DNA from: a virus
Taxonomy: Duplodnaviria; Heunggongvirae; Uroviricota; Caudoviricetes
Reading direction: 5' to 3' (one strand)
IMG/VR virus record: IMGVR_UViG_2563366895_000001
Span: 27,011 to 91,010 of that record
DNA length: 64,000 nt
Shown: positions 578-51,777 of the stretch, one piece after another
How the letters are laid out: each line of letters begins with the position of its first letter
Position numbering within the stretch: the stretch's first letter is position 1
Program-made: the position numbers and the translations under genes
Notes under the pieces: generated by a model
The model's input: the letters and a program-made list of their open reading frames with translations, nothing else
Database searches by the model: none
Told to the model about the DNA's origin: nothing

Positions 578-3700
<3,123 letters not shown>

Positions 3701-3817
3701 TTCGATAATGATTTTTGGCCCTGAAAGCGCCTCCCACAATCCCATATAAAGCGCGCTAAAAAATATACAAATATTTTCGCAAATGTTAGACTGAGGAGAA
3801 GTAAAGAGGAGCGAAAA

Positions 3818-4150
3818 ATGACCACAGTTCGTCGTATGCCAGCCCTCAGCCCGGAAGAAATTCGTAAAATTTCGAAGAATGCCGTGGCGACGGTCGCTGC
3901 GGAAAAAATTGTTACTAACAAAACGGCCTTTGTAAAGGCTGCCGTTGCAGGCGTGATTGCAGGCAAAAAAAATGAAGTTAGTCGTAAAGGCGATAGCCAA
4001 ACTGTCCGTAAAGTAGCAGCTGCATCAGCACGGGATGCAAAGGCTTACAGCCTGTCTCGTCAATTAGCAATGTCCGTCCTATCACAGAGCAGCGGGCGGG
4101 AATATATTCAAGAATCGTTTAATCAGGTTCGTAAAAATAAAAAAGCGTAA
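3818..4150 (+). CDS. Hypothetical small basic protein
   Basis: 110-aa ORF preceded by AAGAGGAG Shine-Dalgarno-like sequence. Confidence 0.4.
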   Translation: MTTVRRMPALSPEEIRKISKNAVATVAAEKIVTNKTAFVKAAVAGVIAGKKNEVSRKGDSQTVRKVAAASARDAKAYSLSRQLAMSVLSQSSGREYIQESFNQVRKNKKA

Positions 4151-4203
4151 CCAACGTGATATTTACAAGCTCCTTTGAAGTGGCTTTTTTATTGTGGTGA
4201 AAC

Positions 4204-4914
4204 ATGACTCAGCAAACAAAGAAATGGATTTTTACTGAGCTGGTAAAAGATCCAAATAATATTGAGCAGCTTCTTTCGTATGCGGTTTATAAAGGTTTTA
4301 AGGACGAAATAGCTCGTAACGCTCGCGCGGCCGGTAAAAAAGAATACGAGATTGAGGCTGAGCTTGCGGCCTACCACGATCAATGCCTCAAGTCACCGAG
4401 GCAGCTTCAAGTATTTAAAAGAAGCGCACAAGAAATTTTAGATGGATACGTTTCTGGCGTCAACAACGAGTTGCAGACAAGGTTAGAAACAATTTTTGAG
4501 CAGCAAGAGAATATTTATCAAAACCAAATCAAAGCCCTCCAGAAAGAGAAAGATGAGGCAAACAAAAATGCTATAAAGCAGCTGGTTAAAGGTGTAGAAA
4601 AATACAGCAAGCAAATAAAGAAACCCGTGGGGTTTTGGGAATGTGCCCAAGTCTATGGGATTGCCATATTAAAATTTCTTTTTTCTGGTGTACCAAAACT
4701 TTTTGCCACAGCCTTCTCAATAGGCCTTTTGTTTACAATATGGGGACTCTTTAACGGTGATGCCGTAACAGGTCTGAGAAAAGGACTTTATAAAATGGTA
4801 GATATAACCGTGCCAGGAGAAAAGGTTAACACTACGCAAAATGATGTTGGCTCAATTAGCCCTAACCAGAAGAGTGTTACGGCAAATAAACAGCCCCACG
4901 ATGGAGGGGCATAA
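4204..4914 (+). CDS. Hypothetical membrane-anchored coiled-coil protein (visibly AT-rich cargo gene)
   Basis: 236-aa ORF; central coiled-coil-like region; C-terminal hydrophobic segments (ILKFLFSGVPKLFATAFSIGLLFTIWGLF); AT-rich compared with flanks. Confidence 0.45.
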   Translation: MTQQTKKWIFTELVKDPNNIEQLLSYAVYKGFKDEIARNARAAGKKEYEIEAELAAYHDQCLKSPRQLQVFKRSAQEILDGYVSGVNNELQTRLETIFEQQENIYQNQIKALQKEKDEANKNAIKQLVKGVEKYSKQIKKPVGFWECAQVYGIAILKFLFSGVPKLFATAFSIGLLFTIWGLFNGDAVTGLRKGLYKMVDITVPGEKVNTTQNDVGSISPNQKSVTANKQPHDGGA

Positions 4915-5290
4915 CCATCAGTGGCGGCTGTAGCTCGGACGGATATAACGCATCGGAGGCGACGTAACGGTTGAGCGGCGCGCGAACGAGCTGGAGCCAT
5001 AATAGCGTTTGGTCGCTGGTGGCGTTGTAGCGCGGCGCCGGATGGTAGTTTTTAATGACGGTCGTATGATGCGTGATGTTGATATTGCTGCTGTGTCCAT
5101 AGCCACCACCGCTCATCAGGTGTCCCATCAGCAAGTCGCTGAAGACCCCGCTGTTATCGTAATAGTGGACCCCTCCCGGCGCGGATGGCTGAGCGACGAT
5201 TACCGGTGCCGGGCCGTCACGGTCACACAAGCTGAGCGCAACCAGGGCAAACAGCACGTCACCAGCAATCAACAGATGTTTCTTTTTCAT
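4877..5290 (-). CDS. Putative lipoprotein (P1 plp-like position)
   Basis: Start taken at internal ATG 5290 (MKKKHLLIAGDVLFALVALSLCD, signal peptide with Cys) preceded by GGGAG; lies after the tRNA region as plp does in P1. Confidence 0.4.
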   Translation of the reverse strand: MKKKHLLIAGDVLFALVALSLCDRDGPAPVIVAQPSAPGGVHYYDNSGVFSDLLMGHLMSGGGYGHSSNINITHHTTVIKNYHPAPRYNATSDQTLLWLQLVRAPLNRYVASDALYPSELQPPLMVMPLHRGAVYLP

Positions 5291-5463
5291 CTCCCGCGTG
5301 CGCTCAGCCGCATTCGCCACAACGGAAAGAGCATCTATGGCGCACATCGCGGGAAAAAGCCCACGGTAGAGAGTCGAACTCTACAAATGCTCTTATCTGT
5401 TGTGCACTCCGTTTCGAGGAATAGATGTCAGAGTCGTACCGGCAGAATCATCACATTGGTATA

Positions 5464-5970
5464 TGGTGATGGTTGATGGAATTGAACCGCCGTAGCTATT
5501 TCTTTATATCCAATAAACCTGCGTGGACTTTTCTGTGGCAATTCGCACAGAGGACAATGTACTTCCTTACTTCTTCCTTAAGTCGCTTTCGAGATCGACT
5601 ACATAGGTTAGAAGGATCGCCTTCTTTGCCGCCAGGGTTATCATGGTGGAGGTCCAGAACTATAGGTTCTTTTTCTCCACAATTTTGGCACCCGATGAAG
5701 CGTTTATAACGAGATAAAAACTGACGGTTTGAACTTGTTTTTCTCGTTCTTGTTAACTTTATAAGCCGGCGCCTTGATTCATTGCTTGCATAACTCAGAG
5801 CATCTCTTTCCTTGGCGCACACCTTGCAAATATTTTGCAGGCCATCGCTCTTTCCTTTGTTTTTATGGAAATCGGAAGCAGGTTTTAGTGCTTTGCATTT
5901 GCTACAAATTTTCATCAGTATCCCACTGCTTACAAGGCAGACGCTCTAACCACTGAGCTACACCATCACT
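5464..5970 (-). tRNA. tRNA-Thr(UGU)-like gene in two pieces: 5' part at 5926..5967, 3' part with encoded CCA at 5464..5497, separated by a 428-bp insert
   Basis: 5' part reads GATGGTG-TA-GCTC-AGTGGTTA-GAGC-G-TCTGC-CTTGTAA-GCAG (D-arm, anticodon arm, anticodon TGT); 3' part reads A-GCTAC-GGCGG-TTCAATT-CCATC-AACCATC-A-CCA; acceptor halves pair 6/7 and the anticodon stem is completed only when the two parts are joined. Confidence 0.5.
5496..5915 (-). CDS. HNH endonuclease (homing-endonuclease-like) occupying the tRNA insert
   Basis: N-terminal Cys cluster (CSKCKALKP...ICKVCAKERD) and C-terminal HNH motif (NCGEKEP...LDLHHDNPGGKEGDPSNL...LCANCHRKVH). Confidence 0.7.
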   Translation of the reverse strand: MKICSKCKALKPASDFHKNKGKSDGLQNICKVCAKERDALSYASNESRRRLIKLTRTRKTSSNRQFLSRYKRFIGCQNCGEKEPIVLDLHHDNPGGKEGDPSNLCSRSRKRLKEEVRKYIVLCANCHRKVHAGLLDIKK

Positions 5971-22520: not shown

Positions 22521-22582
22521 ATTTGGAGAGGAAAGGGTGCATTGAGGATACCTGACACACGAAGAGTGGCGGGGATCTCTCC

Positions 22583-23921
22583 CATAAGCGCTAACTTAAG
22601 GGTTGTGGTATTACGCCTGATATGATTTAACGTGCCGATGAATTACTCTCACGATAACTGGTCAGCAATTCTGGCCCATATTGGTAAGCCCGAAGAACTG
22701 GATACTTCGGCACGTAATGCCGGGGCTCTAACCCGCCGCCGCGAAATTCGTGATGCTGCAACTCTGCTACGTCTGGGGCTGGCTTACGGCCCCGGGGGGA
22801 TGTCATTACGTGAAGTCACTGCATGGGCTCAGCTCCATGACGTTGCAACATTATCTGACGTGGCTCTCCTGAAGCGGCTGCGGAATGCCGCCGACTGGTT
22901 TGGCATACTTGCCGCACAAACACTTGCTGTACGCGCCGCAGTTACGGGTTGTACAAGCGGAAAGAGATTGCGTCTTGTCGATGGAACAGCAATCAGTGCG
23001 CCCGGGGGCGGCAGCGCTGAATGGCGACTACATATGGGATATGATCCTCATACCTGTCAGTTCACTGATTTTGAGCTAACCGACAGCAGAGACGCTGAAC
23101 GGCTGGACCGATTTGCGCAAACGGCAGACGAGATACGCATTGCTGACCGGGGATTCGGTTCGCGTCCCGAATGTATCCGCTCACTTGCTTTTGGAGAAGC
23201 TGATTATATCGTCCGGGTTCACTGGCGAGGATTGCGCTGGTTAACTGCAGAAGGAATGCGCTTTGACATGATGGGTTTTCTGCGCGGGCTGGATTGCGGT
23301 AAGAACGGTGAAACCACTGTAATGATAGGCAATTCAGGTAATAAAAAAGCCGGAGCTCCCTTTCCGGCACGTCTCATTGCCGTATCACTTCCTCCCGAAA
23401 AAGCATTAATCAGTAAAACCCGACTGCTCAGCGAGAATCGTCGAAAAGGACGAGTAGTTCAGGCGGAAACGCTGGAAGCAGCGGGCCATTTGCTATTGCT
23501 AACATCATTACCGGAAGATGAATATTCAGCAGAGCAAGTGGCTGATTGTTACCGTCTGCGATGGCAAATTGAACTGGCTTTTAAGCGGCTCAAAAGTTTG
23601 CTGCACCTGGATGCTTTGCGTGCAAAGGAACCTGAACTCGCGAAAGCGTGGATATTTGCTAATCTACTCGCCGCATTTTTAATTGACGACATAATCCAGC
23701 CATCGCTGGATTTCCCCCCCAGAAGTGCTGGATCCGAAAAGAAGAACTAACTCGTTGTGGAGAATAACAAAAATGGTCATCTGGAGCTTACAGGTGGCCA
23801 TTCGTGGGACAGTATCCCTGACAGCCTACAAAACGCAATTGAAGAACGCGAGGCATCGTCTTAACGAGGCACCGAGGCGTCGCATTCTTCAGATGGTTCA
23901 ACCCTTAAGTTAGCGCTTATG
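22583..23921 (+). mobile_element. IS186-like insertion sequence (IS4 family), 1339 bp, with 10-bp target-site duplication
   Basis: Perfect 23-bp terminal inverted repeats CATAAGCGCTAACTTAAGGGTTG (22583..22605 and 23899..23921); direct repeat GGATCTCTCC at 22573..22582 and 23922..23931. Confidence 0.8.
22632..23750 (+). CDS. insL: IS186-like transposase
   Basis: 372-aa ORF filling the IS; translation (MNYSHDNWSAILAHIGKPEELDTSARNAGALTRRREIRD...) matches my recollection of IS186 InsL. Confidence 0.8.
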   Translation: MPMNYSHDNWSAILAHIGKPEELDTSARNAGALTRRREIRDAATLLRLGLAYGPGGMSLREVTAWAQLHDVATLSDVALLKRLRNAADWFGILAAQTLAVRAAVTGCTSGKRLRLVDGTAISAPGGGSAEWRLHMGYDPHTCQFTDFELTDSRDAERLDRFAQTADEIRIADRGFGSRPECIRSLAFGEADYIVRVHWRGLRWLTAEGMRFDMMGFLRGLDCGKNGETTVMIGNSGNKKAGAPFPARLIAVSLPPEKALISKTRLLSENRRKGRVVQAETLEAAGHLLLLTSLPEDEYSAEQVADCYRLRWQIELAFKRLKSLLHLDALRAKEPELAKAWIFANLLAAFLIDDIIQPSLDFPPRSAGSEKKN

Positions 23922-23943
23922 GGATCTCTCCCCGCCAGGTCTC

Positions 23944-24099
23944 TTACCTTTCAGATTCGTAGGCTGTGAAGACAGTGACCTCCGTCTGGCCGGTTCGGAT
24001 TCGTACCTCGCAGAGGTCTTTCCTCGTTACCAGTGCCGTCACAATGACGGTTAAACAGATGACGATCAGAGCGATTAACATCGCTTTTTGCTGCTTCAT
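23944..24099 (-). CDS. hok: Hok/Gef-family type I toxin (51 aa); not in the supplied ORF track
   Basis: Hand translation MKQQKAMLIALIVICLTVIVTALVTRKDLCEVRIRTGQTEVTVFTAYESER, close to HokC/Gef. Confidence 0.7.
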   Translation of the reverse strand: MKQQKAMLIALIVICLTVIVTALVTRKDLCEVRIRTGQTEVTVFTAYESER

Positions 24100-24157
24100 A
24101 GCCTGCTTCTCCTTGACCTTTTGGTCGGTAAGAGGCTAATCTACGTATGCTAAGCAT
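23951..24157 (-). CDS. mok: Possible mok-like overlapping reading frame
   Basis: 68-aa ORF in another frame spanning the hok ORF, as mok does in hok/sok loci. Confidence 0.35.
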   Translation of the reverse strand: MLSIRRLASYRPKGQGEAGYEAAKSDVNRSDRHLFNRHCDGTGNEERPLRGTNPNRPDGGHCLHSLRI

Positions 24158-24280
24158 AGATATGGCCTCAGATTAATGTTAAGCGTCTTGCAGGACGCGT
24201 AATGTTATCTGGGGCTTTCTTCTATCTGCTTTTCGGGTAATGCCTGAAGCAGATAGCCTCAAGCACCCGCAACGATTGTA

Positions 24281-24526
24281 TCAATGTCTGGCTTTTTTTC
24301 TATAGAAATCACCTGGAAGGGTGAATATCCACATCAAAAGAAATGTTGCAGCAAACATGATCCCTAATGGCCAGACCGCGCCAAAGAAAATCCATACTAA
24401 GATCTCCTCTGTTCGTTCTTTGCGGTCGATATCGACAAGCATTTTTCGGCTGATCATGTATACACAGAAGCCAATACAAACATATCCTGCAAAAGAGATC
24501 GCTAACTGTAAAAAATCAGATTGCAT
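24281..24526 (-). CDS. Small membrane protein (two predicted TM segments)
   Basis: Start taken at internal ATG 24526 (MQSDFLQLAISFAGYVCIGFCVYMI...) to avoid overlap with repL. Confidence 0.3.
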   Translation of the reverse strand: MQSDFLQLAISFAGYVCIGFCVYMISRKMLVDIDRKERTEEILVWIFFGAVWPLGIMFAATFLLMWIFTLPGDFYRKKARH

Positions 24527-24576
24527 CTCCGACCTCAAACTGAAAACGCCAGGTGACTCCAGATTAGAGCAATTTA

Positions 24577-27985: not shown

Positions 27986-28002
27986 AAATTTATTAGAGCA
28001 GA
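27986..28002 (-). promoter_or_regulatory. C1-repressor operator-like site upstream of the c4-icd-ant block (P1 Op51 position)
   Basis: Plus strand AAATTTATTAGAGCAGA, 15/17 to the reverse-complemented consensus. Confidence 0.5.
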
Positions 28003-28283
28003 TTAGTGTCGTGCAATAGATATATTATTTGTGATGAAAAATAATGCAGAGGGATATTGTAACTTTAAGATGGATATCAATAGTCGATACATAAATTAAG
28101 TTAGCAATAAACTATTAACTTAAGAAATAATGCAGATGGTGAACTTGTCTCTGACTTTTCAGCTATACACAATAAGTTAGGGATAGCTTATAAAAAGTTG
28201 ATTAATTGATATAAGTCAATGGGAGTATTCTTGTTTACTTTCCGTTCTCGTGGTAACTTCTCGCCGGTTTTTGTTTTTCTGGG

Positions 28284-28805
28284 ATGATTCTTATGTCTAA
28301 AAAGTATACTTTATGCGCTCTTGTTGTATCTGCAATTCTTCTTTCTGGGTGTCAATCTAGCGGTGCTGATTATGCTGCCGATGTTTATGATACCGCTCAA
28401 TTGAATTCGAAGCAGGAAACAAAGACAGTCAATATTATCTCTGTGCTTCCAGCTAAAGTGAAAGTTGATAATAAAGCTAATAAAGAAGCGGCACAGACAT
28501 TTGGTGCGGTACTGGGAGCTGTTGCTGGGGGCGTTGCCGGTTATAATGTTAAAGGCACATCGACACTGGGTGCTGTAGCTGGCGGTACTGGTGGTGCGGC
28601 TCTTGGTGCAGCGGCTGGTTCTTTGGTTAGTGATAAAACAATTGTTGAAGGTGTTTCACTGACTTATAAAGAAGGAACTAAGGTGTTCACTTCAACTCAA
28701 GTTGGTAAAGCATGCCAGTTTACAACGGGGCTTGCTGTGCTTATTTCAACTAAAGATAATGAAACTCGAATTCAGCCAAATGCTACTTGTCCAGAAAAGA
28801 AATAA
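28284..28805 (+). CDS. Outer-membrane lipoprotein with glycine-zipper region (visibly AT-rich)
   Basis: Signal peptide with lipobox LLSGC; Gly-zipper GAVLGAVAGGVAGYNVKGTSTLGAVAGGTGGAALGAAAGS. Confidence 0.5.
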   Translation: MILMSKKYTLCALVVSAILLSGCQSSGADYAADVYDTAQLNSKQETKTVNIISVLPAKVKVDNKANKEAAQTFGAVLGAVAGGVAGYNVKGTSTLGAVAGGTGGAALGAAAGSLVSDKTIVEGVSLTYKEGTKVFTSTQVGKACQFTTGLAVLISTKDNETRIQPNATCPEKK

Positions 28806-28808
28806 TTT

Positions 28809-29348
28809 ATGAATAAAATTATTTTATTTCTAATCTTTTCTACGTTTAGTGTAGGCACTGCCTTGGCTAACTCGTTGCAAAGTCAAATTGCTGCTATTGC
28901 TCAAGCGGAAAATGAAGGGCGAGCTAAAGAGCAGCAAGCTGAGGATGCCAGAAAAGAACTTATTCGCCAACAAGCACAAGCTGAACGTATTAGAAGAGAA
29001 AAAGCAGCATCTGCCGCTGCTGCACGCGAAAAACAGCGTGTTGCTGCAGAAAATGAACGTAGAGCGAAACGAGAAGCCGAGCTAGCAAATGACAAGAAGC
29101 GAGATCAAGCTTATGAGGATGAGCTTCGCAAGCTGCAACTCGAAAGCATGAAACTCGAACTGCAAGCAAAAGCGGCTCGTGTCCAGCGAGAAAACGATTT
29201 TATAGAGCAGGAGTTGAAGGAGAGAGCAGCTAAGACAGATGTAATTCAGTCTGAGGCTGATGCAAATAGAAATATTTCTACAGGAAGTAAAGATTTACTG
29301 CAAAGCGAAGGAAAAGCTAGAGAGAAGAAAGCTAGCAGTTGGTGGTAG
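28809..29348 (+). CDS. Secreted coiled-coil protein
   Basis: N-terminal signal peptide (FSTFSVGTALA), then highly charged Ala/Glu/Arg/Lys-rich helix. Confidence 0.4.
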   Translation: MNKIILFLIFSTFSVGTALANSLQSQIAAIAQAENEGRAKEQQAEDARKELIRQQAQAERIRREKAASAAAAREKQRVAAENERRAKREAELANDKKRDQAYEDELRKLQLESMKLELQAKAARVQRENDFIEQELKERAAKTDVIQSEADANRNISTGSKDLLQSEGKAREKKASSWW

Positions 29349-29388
29349 TAATCGCTACGATTGCGAGCATACTGTCACAAATGACAAC

Positions 29389-41400: not shown

Positions 41401-42765
41401 ACTGGCAATGCTGCAACTGCAACAAAACTGCAAACAGCACGCACAATAGGCGGAGTGTCATTCGATGGTAGTGCCAATATCGACCTGCCGGGCGTGAATA
41501 AAGCAGGTAATCAGAGCACTACCGGTAATGCCGCAACCGCAACGAAACTTCAGACGGCCCGCACAATCGGCGGCGTGTCATTCGATGGCTCCGCCAATAT
41601 CAACCTGCCGGGTGTAAACATTGCTGGTAACCAGAACACGACCGGTAATGCAGCTACGGCTACCAAATTGCAAACAGCGCGTACCATTAATGGGGTTTCA
41701 TTTGACGGTTCTGCGAATATTTCACTGTCACCAGCAAATATTGGTTGCCCGGCATCTCCTACTGGTTGGTTAACAACAGGTAATAACGGTGAGTCAATAA
41801 CGACAGCCCAGTTAGTTACTTTGTTGCAAAATAACGGGGCATTCAATACGAAAGCATGGATCGCTCGTTGTGCATGGGCGTATGCGAATAGTGCATCCAT
41901 ACCAGACAGTGAAACTGGTTGTGGCATTATTCCACTGGCGGGTGCTGTGATAGAAGTATTCAGCAATAATACCAACAATTACACCATTCGAATAACAACG
42001 GCCACTACGACAAATGTCTCTGGTGCACTCACTAATGCGGAGTTTATCTATGTGTCTAATGGCTCAAGTTATTCACCTGGATGGCGCAGAGCGTATAACA
42101 CTAAAAATAAACCTACTACTGCTGACCTTGGCCTGAGCGATGCAAGTGGATACGTTGGACGCCTTGTAAACACTCGAATTTTCACTTCATCAGGTACGTA
42201 CACCCCGACACCAGGAACTAAACGAATCAGGGTCACAATTACGGGCGGCGGTGGCGGAGGGGGTGGCTGCCAGGCTACATCCAATAACGAAACGTTTTTC
42301 GGTGCAGGCGGTGGGGCCGGCGGGACAGTAATTGTCACGCTGACCCTGACGAAGGATAGTTATCCTGTCACTATCGGCGCAGGTGGGGGCGGCGGTGTTG
42401 GTGCGACGAACGGCCTCAAGGGCGGTGATAGCTCGTTCGGAACGGTAATAGCCCCTGGCGGTGAAGGCGGCGGGAAAGTAGGAGTCACAAACACGAACGG
42501 TGGTAATGGAGGCGCGCCGAATACTGGTGATGTCCGCATTATTGGTGGGCATGGAGGAGACGGTCAGTCCGGAAATATCAGCGTCAGTGGTGAAGGGGGA
42601 TCATCGTTCTGGGGGGGCGGTGGTCGCGCAGGCGCTGGCGGTGGCGTTATCGGTCGGGCATATGGTTCGGGCGGCGGTGGTGCATACGATGCCGGTTATA
42701 GCGGAACCAGTATGACGGGCGGGAAAGGCGCTGCAGGGATTTGTATTATCGAGGAGTTTGCATAA
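38461..42765 (+). CDS. S: Tail fibre protein with tandem fibre repeats and Gly-rich C-terminal domain
   Basis: Start taken at ATG 38461 after AAGGA (listed ORF begins upstream in the same frame); three ~60-aa repeats (TGTPTAPTAAQSTNSTQIANTAFV...); at least seven ~32-aa repeats (GNQNTTGNAATATKLQTARTIGGVSFDGSANI.LPGVN); poly-Gly-rich C-terminus. Confidence 0.8.
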   Translation: MNDVTVVTSVTYPSPESLALVADVQYHEPYLSAALNRKFRGIVDPGFYAGFFPKPGGGMNLLITSVDGDKTAGAASVNIGEFYQVTIQQRKDISLALSAGKKYAIVLKGRYLLGEDTYQVNTASHIHAAEFVARTYTDSYQLGDGELLVCTVNIPAGVSAITQEMIDVSDRIDLTIGIEISDSVTSTRSDVAASSLAVKKTYDLAKSKYTAQDASTTQKGLVQLSSATNSDSETMAATPKAVKSVKELADTKAPIESPELTGTPTAPTAAQSTNSTQIANTAFVKAAITALINGAPGALDTLKEIAAAINNDPNFSTTINNALALKAPLASPALTGIPTAPTAAQGTNNTQIATTAYVRAAISALVGSSPEALDTLNELAAALGNDPNFATTMTNALAGKQPLDATLTALAGLTTGANKLPYFTGTDTVSQTDLTSVGRDILAKTSTLAVIQYLGLREIGTSGEKIPLLSTANTWSARQTFNGGITGALTGNADTATKLKTARTIGGVAFDGTANINLPGVNVAGNQNTSGNAATATKLQTARTINGVSFDGSKNIELTPRSIGTINSTTMSFIGGAGWFKLATVTMPQASSVVYISLIGSSGYNVNSPMQAGISELVLRAGNGNPKGLTGALWRRTSVGFTNFAWVNTSGDTYDVYVEIGNYATGVNIQWDYTSNASVTIHTSPNYTVDKPTGLTDGTVYVIYSSHIKPTATDVGALPITGGNLNGGLTATGEIISKSANGLRIAYGNYGFFIRNDGSNTYFMLTDSGNSLGTYNSLRPLIINNANGTVTIGNGLNVTGGINGSLNGNASTATKLQKARNINGVQFDGSADISIPTITSRGRVTALTGTTQGDAAGLQMYEAYNNGYPTAYGNILHLKGATSRGEGELLIGWSATSGAHAPILIRSRRDNTDAAWSEWAQVYTSKDSIPGVNTTGNQNTTGNAASATKLQTARTIGGVSFNGTANIDLPGVNKTGNQSTTGNAATATKLQTARTIGGVSFDGSANIDLPGVNKAGNQSTTGNAATATKLQTARTIGGVSFDGSANINLPGVNIAGNQNTTGNAATATKLQTARTINGVSFDGSANISLSPANIGCPASPTGWLTTGNNGESITTAQLVTLLQNNGAFNTKAWIARCAWAYANSASIPDSETGCGIIPLAGAVIEVFSNNTNNYTIRITTATTTNVSGALTNAEFIYVSNGSSYSPGWRRAYNTKNKPTTADLGLSDASGYVGRLVNTRIFTSSGTYTPTPGTKRIRVTITGGGGGGGGCQATSNNETFFGAGGGAGGTVIVTLTLTKDSYPVTIGAGGGGGVGATNGLKGGDSSFGTVIAPGGEGGGKVGVTNTNGGNGGAPNTGDVRIIGGHGGDGQSGNISVSGEGGSSFWGGGGRAGAGGGVIGRAYGSGGGGAYDAGYSGTSMTGGKGAAGICIIEEFA
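41245..41725 (+). repeat. Four tandem 96-bp coding repeats inside the tail fibre gene
   Basis: Four consecutive 32-aa units of the GNQ.TTGNAA.ATKLQTARTIGGVSF.G.ANI.LPGVN type. Confidence 0.6.
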
Positions 42766-43175
42766 TGAATACATCATATGCAGTTATTGAAAATGGGATG
42801 GTTGTGAATGTCATTGTCTGGGATGGCGAGGCTGAATTCACAGTGCCGGATAATCAGCAGCTCATTAATATTTCTGATATCAGTGAGCAGCCCGGAATCG
42901 GCTGGGTGTATTCAGACGGGGGATTTACTGCACCACCCACTCCGGAACGTTCTCATGATGAACTGGTAGCTGACGCTGAACAGAAAAAACAGTCGCTGAT
43001 TGATACCGCAATGGCTTCCATTAGTCTTATTCAACTGAAATTACAGGCCGGGCGGAATCTTACGCAGGCTGAAACCACCCGTCTTAACGCTGTGTTGGAT
43101 TATATCAATGCGGTGACCGCAACGGATACCAGCACTGCACCAGATGTCAATTTTCCAGCGTTCCCGGAGGCGTAG
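42765..43175 (+). CDS. U: Tail fibre assembly chaperone (Tfa, P1 U-like)
   Basis: ATG overlaps the fibre stop (TAATG) after GAGGAG; 136 aa; typical Tfa size and position. Confidence 0.55.
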   Translation: MNTSYAVIENGMVVNVIVWDGEAEFTVPDNQQLINISDISEQPGIGWVYSDGGFTAPPTPERSHDELVADAEQKKQSLIDTAMASISLIQLKLQAGRNLTQAETTRLNAVLDYINAVTATDTSTAPDVNFPAFPEA

Positions 43176-43214
43176 CCCATTTAAAAAAATATTTGGAGCG
43201 CTGGAAGTAACGAC

Positions 43215-43467
43215 TGGTTCCAGTGCATCCTGATAAGATGATTACTGTTCATGCTTCAAGAGCGAGCGCATACTGCATCCAAGCCAATCTAACTTTCATT
43301 CGACCAGAGTGTCACCTCTCAAAAGCATTTTTTAACTCTGGTCGTTCAGCCTTTTTGCCGCTCGCCTTGTCCTCAAAAATTAGCTCACATCCTGCGCTTT
43401 CAAGAGCATTTCGTTGTAAAGCAGTGTTTTGTTCATTTGTTGATACGCGTACATAGCCTATTAGCAT
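43215..43467 (-). pseudogene. cin: Truncated, decayed cin-like serine invertase gene
   Basis: Minus-strand hand translation from ATG 43467: MLIGYVRVSTNEQNTALQRNALESAGCELIFEDKASGKKAERPELKNAFER then stop; downstream in other frames GDTLVE and KLDWLGCSMRSLLKHEQ; matches the Cin/Hin/Gin N-terminus; the rest of the gene is absent. Confidence 0.6.
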
Positions 43468-43594
43468 ATTTTCTGCTCACTATCGTTATTTATAGCAAGC
43501 TGCGGATTTTAATTAACAAAAACCAGTGTGTGTGGAAATCACAAAGTACATACCGTTTCCCAATGAGATTTAATTCACTATTGAGGAAATAGTT

Positions 43595-43876
43595 ATGTTT
43601 GATTTCACAATAATGCTCCTCTCCATCCTTGGCGGGGTGCATTCGTTTCTGAATGGGGTTCGTGAAAAACGTTACGAAGCGTCATGCAGGCAATTGATGG
43701 CCGAGTGTATTGCTGCCGTACTTGCAGGCTTTATAGGCATGTATTTCGCGGAATATAAGGGTATGGATGAAAGTCTTCAGAATTGCGTGACTATTATTTG
43801 CAGCATCAATAACAGGCTCATTCTTGAAAAGTCACAAAGGATTATCGATTCGTACCTCAATAGAAATGCCTCTTAA
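43595..43876 (+). CDS. lydC: LydA-like holin paralogue (P1 lydC position)
   Basis: 93 aa, visibly homologous to the downstream LydA-like ORF (LLSILGGVHSFLNGVRE vs LLSVIGGIGTFLMDVRD). Confidence 0.45.
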   Translation: MFDFTIMLLSILGGVHSFLNGVREKRYEASCRQLMAECIAAVLAGFIGMYFAEYKGMDESLQNCVTIICSINNRLILEKSQRIIDSYLNRNAS

Positions 43877-43943
43877 GCAAGAAATGACCGGTTGAGAAGT
43901 TACTTTGCATACCATTACCTCCTGACAACGTAGGAGGGAACTT

Positions 43944-44273
43944 GTGCTTGACACACAGGAATTAGCTCCAGTTGCTATTGCGCTCCTGCTTTCAGTAATT
44001 GGTGGGATAGGCACGTTCCTGATGGATGTCCGAGACGGTCGCCAGTCTGGCAATTTGTTGGGATTGGTTACGGAGATCTTTGTTGCAGTGACAGCTGGCG
44101 CGGTGGCGTACCTATTGGGGCAACACGAGGGCTGGGAGTTATCAATTACGTACTTAATGGTAACGATAGCCAGCAATAACGGTCATGAGGTGATTTCAGG
44201 GATGAAACGAGTGAATATCGATAGCATTCTGAATGTTCTTACAAGTTTGGTGAAAAAGGGAGGCGGGAAATGA
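43944..44273 (+). CDS. lydA: Holin (P1 LydA-like)
   Basis: 109 aa, hydrophobic segments, first gene of the darA-type operon. Confidence 0.5.
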   Translation: MLDTQELAPVAIALLLSVIGGIGTFLMDVRDGRQSGNLLGLVTEIFVAVTAGAVAYLLGQHEGWELSITYLMVTIASNNGHEVISGMKRVNIDSILNVLTSLVKKGGGK

Positions 44274-51598: not shown

Positions 51599-51777
51599 GA
51601 GGCTTCCAAGCAAATATCATGACAAGCATAAAGTGTTAAAGTAATGTTACGCATCTTAACAAAGTGACTCTTGATTAATTTTAATTCGCCCTATCTTGCT
51701 TGTCTAACCATCATTGCATATACAGAGGGCAAAGAATTACACTTCATGTAATTTATTTCCCTTTAATTTCGTATTAT

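Follow-up and report, generated by a model that had tools for sequence, protein, structure and literature searches.

A broken cin gene beside a single tail-fibre cassette: a probable relic of the C-segment inversion switch in a P1-like phage-plasmid

Gene content of the tail-fibre locus

We analysed 64 kb of DNA (64,000 nucleotides, hereafter the window) from a P1-like phage-plasmid, which runs in the direction opposite to that of the P1 map. Approximately 86% of the window is collinear with P1 at 96-98.6% identity and five replaced blocks make up the rest, which defines its backbone as P1-like. At the tail-fibre locus the order R, S, U, stump of the invertase gene cin, lydC, lydA, lydB, hdf, darA is that of P1 with a shortened C-segment region. 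The following features were assigned:

38461..42765, plus strand: tail-fibre gene S, 1434 aa, an uninterrupted ORF
39809..39834, minus strand: orphan crossover site cixR at the Sc/Sv junction within S, 26/26 identical to P1 cixR
42765..43175, plus strand: chaperone gene U, 136 aa, an intact short tail-fibre assembly protein (Pfam Caudo_TAP, PF02413, E 9e-21)
43147..43262, minus strand: U'-like relic, the last ~35 codons of a second, inverted tail-fibre-assembly gene, from alignments to tfaE/tfa pairs
43267..43467, minus strand: cin pseudogene stump, from DNA alignment and tblastn against P1 Cin, Pfam and PGAP labels in relatives
43378..43449, minus strand: recombinational enhancer inside the cin 5' end, 71/72 identical to the P1 enhancer annotated at AF234172 31678-31749
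43468..43594, no strand: cin-lydC divergent intergenic region, 124/127 identical to P1, where it bears the predicted cin promoters
43595..43876, plus strand: holin gene lydC (Pfam Phage_holin_3_3, P1 synteny)

The constant part of S (Sc) is ~95% identical to P1 and belongs to the P1 homology block 38300-39965. Beyond 39965 the gene continues with a non-P1 variable part and ends in a C-terminal glycine-rich domain. Pfam placed Phage_fiber_2 repeats, a Gp34_trimer domain (trimerisation) and a C-terminal Gly_rich_2 domain (PF21722, residues 1243-1431) in the protein. S also holds a tandem repeat at 41248-41678, with 3.6 copies of a 120-bp (40-aa) unit. The repeat number and the length of S vary among related plasmids (~1434 aa here and ~1515 aa in relatives L005 and L006), and therefore fibre length varies by repeat gain and loss despite the lost tip switch.

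The start of U overlaps the stop of S (TAATG). Its product matches the Caudo_TAP family over the full length and is encoded directly 3' of the fibre gene. In relatives, PGAP describes U as incomplete at the N-terminus ('missing N-terminus'). The alignment of U with the assembly protein of phage Goslar (vB_EcoM_Goslar, MK327938) argues against this, as the two align end to end (1-136 vs 1-137 of 138) with 67% amino acid identity, and the label is probably an artefact of the comparison with longer Tfa proteins. The glycine-rich C-terminal tip of S is 72% identical to the end of the Goslar fibre. This Gly_rich_2 receptor-binding tip with its short chaperone (window 41722-43175) occurs in P1-like plasmids, which are temperate, and at 67-72% amino acid identity in Goslar, a virulent jumbo phage; the kinship concerns the receptor-binding module, not the element. 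In the ~6 kb around the Goslar fibre gene, neither an invertase nor a second inverted tip/chaperone set is annotated. Since both S and U are intact ORFs, one fixed tip is expected as their product.

Several other P1 loci are replaced in the window. The P1 block with ban, dbn, tciABC and tRNA genes (P1 65423-70126) is absent and a ~2.4 kb replacement with four ORFs occupies 3563-5941. None of the four ORFs has a Pfam match, one of them (5496-5915, minus strand) has CxxC/CxxCH motifs, and ARAGORN found no tRNA genes in the window. An IS186-like DDE transposase gene (22632-23750, plus strand) is positioned within 22521-24562, at the P1 rlfA/rlfB/pmgF position beside repL; an IS186-like insertion at this position was likewise reported for plasmid pSvP1 (PMC6906374). 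The P1 superimmunity locus sim is replaced by two ORFs (28001-29376), of which 28284-28805 resembles a lipoprotein gene and matches TraT weakly, below the threshold, and 28809-29348 encodes a DUF5384 protein. The IS1 of reference P1, located between isaA and isaB, is absent at 51723-51731 and its flanks join cleanly.

The cin stump, the lone crossover site and the U' relic

In the DNA alignment, minus-strand 43267-43467 corresponds to nt 1-212 of the 561 nt of P1 cin. The homology runs from 43467 down to 43267 and is interrupted by an 11-bp internal deletion after cin nt 139, between 43329 and 43328. The ORF at 43312-43467 (minus strand) has 51 codons and encodes MLIGYVRVSTNEQNTALQRNALESAGCELIFEDKASGKKAERPELKNAFER followed by a stop; it begins with MLIGYVRVSTNEQ and ends with NAFER. 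When P1 Cin was searched against the window by tblastn, Cin residues 1-49 matched at 92% identity (E 7e-26), and the match to residues 50-74, which extends to 43257, is in another frame and contains a stop. The Pfam Resolvase N-terminal domain was found on the 51-codon ORF with E 8e-13 (profile positions 2-57 of 145, residues 3-50). An earlier note, made from the sequence alone, had described a decayed cin remnant with a 51-residue minus-strand ORF, a stop and further fragments in shifted frames, and the ORF, tblastn, Pfam and DNA alignment data confirm this description, with matches far above chance level.

Residues 1-43 of the stump are identical to P1 Cin and include the YVRVST motif with the serine nucleophile, which is the N-terminal hallmark of the Din family. 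A complete catalytic domain with the dimerisation helix takes ~140 residues, and the homology of the stump stops at codon 71. The C-terminal helix-turn-helix DNA-binding domain (Cin residues 75-186) had no significant tblastn match anywhere in the window. A frameshift-tolerant tblastn of P1 Cin in all six frames of the 64-kb window returned the stump as the sole match and no intact invertase, and scanning S, U and the stump against NCBIfam gave merely a weak generic serine-recombinase match. Judged by its sequence, the stump is a derivative of a Din-family invertase gene that lacks the features of functional members, namely the complete catalytic domain, the DNA-binding domain and paired sites.

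The divergence within the stump is uneven. Nucleotides 1-121 are identical to P1 at 120/121 positions (99%) and nt 122-212 are ~80% identical and contain the 11-bp deletion, which may mark a recombination boundary. The enhancer sequence is kept at 71/72 but would have nothing left to act on, and any function of it would be moot without recombination sites. To the right of the stump, lydC is an intact backbone gene and forms the border of the lost region.

The switch of P1 (AF234172) consists of cin, cixL, Sv', U', U, Sv and cixR, and cixL overlaps the cin stop codon. A P1-type switch has two inverted crossover sites flanking the segment; in the window there is one perfect cixR only. We scanned the 64-kb window for mismatches to both P1 cix 26-mers and found no second site with at most 7 mismatches. 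The next-best site, at 23173, has 8 mismatches, which is the chance level seen in shuffled sequence. The search for cix-like sites in the fibre gene that the earlier note had proposed thus recovered one perfect cixR in S and no partner. Relatives L002-L006 likewise have a single cixR, and the intact relatives L010 and L016 have two cix sites each. An inverted-repeat search of 38000-44000 for a hidden alternative tip gave only two 18-nt chance pairs. In place of a tail-to-tail pair of tip and chaperone cassettes, the window has one cassette and a ~116-bp relic of the second chaperone.

This U' relic overlaps the 3' end of U by ~29 bp, as intact pairs do. It is decayed, with stops and an 18-bp indel between lineages. 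Its counterparts belong to the e14 Pin/P-segment switch type, in which tfaE/tfa pairs are ~82% identical to the window's U 3' end plus U' relic; window 42990-43236 aligns with the tail-to-tail tfaE/tfa junction of e14-like prophages (L007, L008) at ~82% nucleotide identity. The relic peptide YQDALEPVVTSSAPNI aligns with YLDALELVDISSAPDI of the inverted tfa partner, and the part past the U stop corresponds to the last codons of the partner. The relic is joined directly to cin nt 212 and the two are collinear on the minus strand. Such a layout is expected if one event carried away the front part of U' and the last 349 nt of cin together with Sv' and cixL, which lie between them.

The relic changes two details of the earlier description. 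Of the interval 43215-43467, which had been assigned to the invertase remnant as a whole, the upper part is invertase and ~43215-43262 is the U' relic. The stump does not directly abut the chaperone gene either, as U stops at 43175 and ~90 bp of U' relic lie between them. The statement that the rest of the invertase and the alternative fibre tip are missing holds, with no other Cin-like match in the 64 kb, no second cix and no inverted repeat. Alignment to the P1 cin/C-segment locus gave the same picture, with cin nt 1-212 kept and cixL, Sv' and nearly all of U' absent. What remains is a truncated, broken invertase gene, a ~116-bp U' tail, a lone cixR and one tip cassette. Of the four parts that make up the P1 switch, three are deleted, namely the 3' two-thirds of cin, cixL and the Sv'/U' cassette.

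The junction among related plasmids

The locus shares with P1 the backbone position between lydC and S, the cixR, the enhancer and Sc. Unlike P1, it has 212 of 561 nt of cin, in a broken state, and its Sv/U is swapped for an unrelated glycine-rich tip with a short chaperone. We found the U plus U'-relic sequence in 44 PLSDB plasmids; every one is from E. coli, and almost all are P1-like replicons of 80-140 kb classed as non-mobilizable. The junction of U, relic, stump and lydC is present in 55 of 5426 complete E. coli genomes, in one collinear piece each. The junction and the 11-bp deletion are common to all five aligned relatives, which supports a single origin of both. A direct ancestor with the exact U' of the relic was not found, as all 44 high-identity PLSDB matches already have the junction. 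In the complete 82-kb relative pCE0026a2 we found neither a further serine recombinase or Cin-like sequence nor a second cix with at most 7 mismatches.

The aligned relatives carry differing extra 1-bp frameshifts and the 51-codon ORF is not conserved. Two haplotypes differ by 12.6% in the relic and 6.9% in the stump, plus indels including the 18-bp one, whereas the same comparisons give 98.5-100% identity for U, lydC and lydA. This divergence between near-identical genes most readily reads as pseudogene drift, that is neutral decay flanked by constrained genes.

The junction and the loss of the switch are already known. In RefSeq relatives, PGAP labels the stump as 'recombinase family protein; frameshifted; incomplete; missing C-terminus'. 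Plasmid pSvP1 (MN510446) has the same S tip, U, relic, stump and lydC and is 97.8% identical over window 41513-44000; it differs from the window by extra IS-mediated rearrangements. Venturini et al. 2019 (PMC6906374) reported a partial invertase ORF in pSvP1 and described P1-like variants without a complete C-segment, in which host-switching was 'presumably lost'. The U' relic, the orphan cixR and the exact breakpoints are not mentioned in that paper (PMC6906374). Our additions are modest and comprise the exact breakpoints (cin nt 212 and the U' tail), the U' relic, the orphan cixR, the Goslar-type identity of the tip and a counterpart with an intact switch.

This counterpart is pSBF45b (NZ_CP067234.1), an IncY P1-like plasmid with the same tip and 136-aa U (95% nucleotide identity over 41488-43229) and a perfect cixR. 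Unlike the window, it retains an intact U' of the P1 type (178 aa) together with Sv' (527 aa), a perfectly matching cixL and an intact Cin of 186 aa. From its sequence, pSBF45b carries a complete and presumably working switch, with the tip of the window as one of two states. It could serve as a natural positive control for inversion assays. We considered it as the ancestor of the window's locus and rejected this, since its partner cassette is P1-type and not the tfa2-type of the relic, which makes it a cousin.

Stumps of cin are found outside this group as well. P1-like plasmids of the pEC2_5 type (NZ_CP041960.1) also have a P1 cin 5' stump beside lydC, even shorter than that of the window. 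The P1 switch of pEC2_5 was replaced by an invertible fibre cassette of foreign origin, which sits beside the stump and has an intact invertase of its own; in the window nothing took the place of the switch. In total, 414 complete E. coli genomes contain cin-like DNA and only 140 of them cover at least 80% of cin. The remaining cin-bearing genomes have 5' stumps of ~52, 140, 177, 236 or 307 nt. It is therefore the common condition, and not an exception, that the P1 switch has been lost or replaced and a 5' cin stump is left beside lydC.

Probable loss of the inversion switch

Taken together, the locus is very probably a non-functional relic of a P1-type C-segment inversion switch. The ancestral order would have been Sc-cixR-Sv-U> <U'-Sv'-cixL-cin, and a single event would have removed the stretch from ~35 codons before the U' end to cin codon 71. 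With it would have gone most of U', all of Sv', cixL, the remainder of the Cin catalytic core, the dimerisation helix and the DNA-binding domain. The event could have been a deletion or an illegitimate cassette replacement that imported the Goslar-like glycine-rich tip and short chaperone. Either a deletion in an ancestor that could already invert or a one-step illegitimate replacement may account for the locus. Since pSBF45b, too, has ~70 bp of the same U'-type relic after U, the relic may have come in with the imported cassette and need not mark an in-situ deletion. IS-mediated deletion was rejected, as there is no IS near the junction and the nearest one, which is IS186-like, is at 22.6 kb. 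An exchange at the cix crossover point was rejected as well, since the P1 homology continues 144 bp beyond the crossover, to 39965.

An S-U module with one crossover site and without an invertase would not be able to invert, and virions, if made, would have a single glycine-rich tip. The earlier note had predicted a locked switch with one fixed tip, and the single cix site, single cassette, broken cin and intact S and U argue for this prediction. The stump itself would have no function. It would persist as a neutral sequence adjoining the lydC promoter region that must be kept, so that deletion endpoints would be free within cin and barred from the lydC promoter region.

We weighed this explanation against a role for the stump. 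A truncated N-terminal Cin peptide might still be functional, or the cin promoters and the Fis-binding enhancer might act as a regulatory element, for example on the divergent lydC. In line with this, roughly two-thirds of the cin-bearing E. coli genomes (414 in total, 140 near full-length) hold just a 5' stump, and in the window nt 1-121 (99%), the intergenic region (98%) and the enhancer (71/72) are almost identical to P1. We nevertheless regard a functional stump as very improbable. Close relatives have frameshifts at differing places in the ORF, and a fragment of 51 aa lacks the dimer helix, the DNA-binding domain and the larger part of the catalytic domain. The varied stump lengths are also what is expected if the endpoints are free in cin but do not reach into the lydC promoter. 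In addition, the 5' part is not universally conserved, since the L009-type class is only ~88-89% identical over nt 1-177 and ~80% over the stump plus intergenic region. Because this other common stump class is merely ~88-89% identical over nt 1-177, we favour recombination with intact-cin plasmids over selection as the cause of the uneven stump identity. That the 5' end of cin is preferentially kept for an inversion-independent role, such as setting lydC expression, and is not a neutral remnant, is in our view very unlikely.

The switch might also not be locked at all. Din invertases cross-complement and P1 Cin uses quasi-cix sites at low frequency, and an invertase provided in trans (e.g. Pin of e14 or of another prophage) could act on cixR and a cryptic or distant site. 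The surviving cixR is indeed perfectly conserved, but it lies in coding sequence and its conservation needs no role in recombination. Neither the 64-kb window nor the 82-kb relative, scanned in full, has a second site with at most 7 mismatches, and the match with 8 mismatches is at chance level. With a single crossover site in the window and in the whole related plasmid, no inversion is therefore expected even with an invertase in trans. The alternative tip to switch in is absent, and 55/55 junction genomes show U, relic, stump and lydC in one collinear piece. We consider inversion in trans extremely unlikely. The chance that sequencing or assembly produced the truncation, and that the real element has an intact cin, is practically nil. 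Nothing was found in favour of it, and the junction recurs, with its own divergence, in complete plasmids that were sequenced independently and come from several continents and hosts. The non-functional relic thus stays the preferred explanation, and none of our observations contradicts it.

The finding matters little beyond annotation. A P1-like lineage would have given up the two-state host-range switch for a single Goslar-like tip. Such a fixed tip would be relevant to predicting the host range and the transduction potential of these plasmids, which are often carriers of resistance genes.
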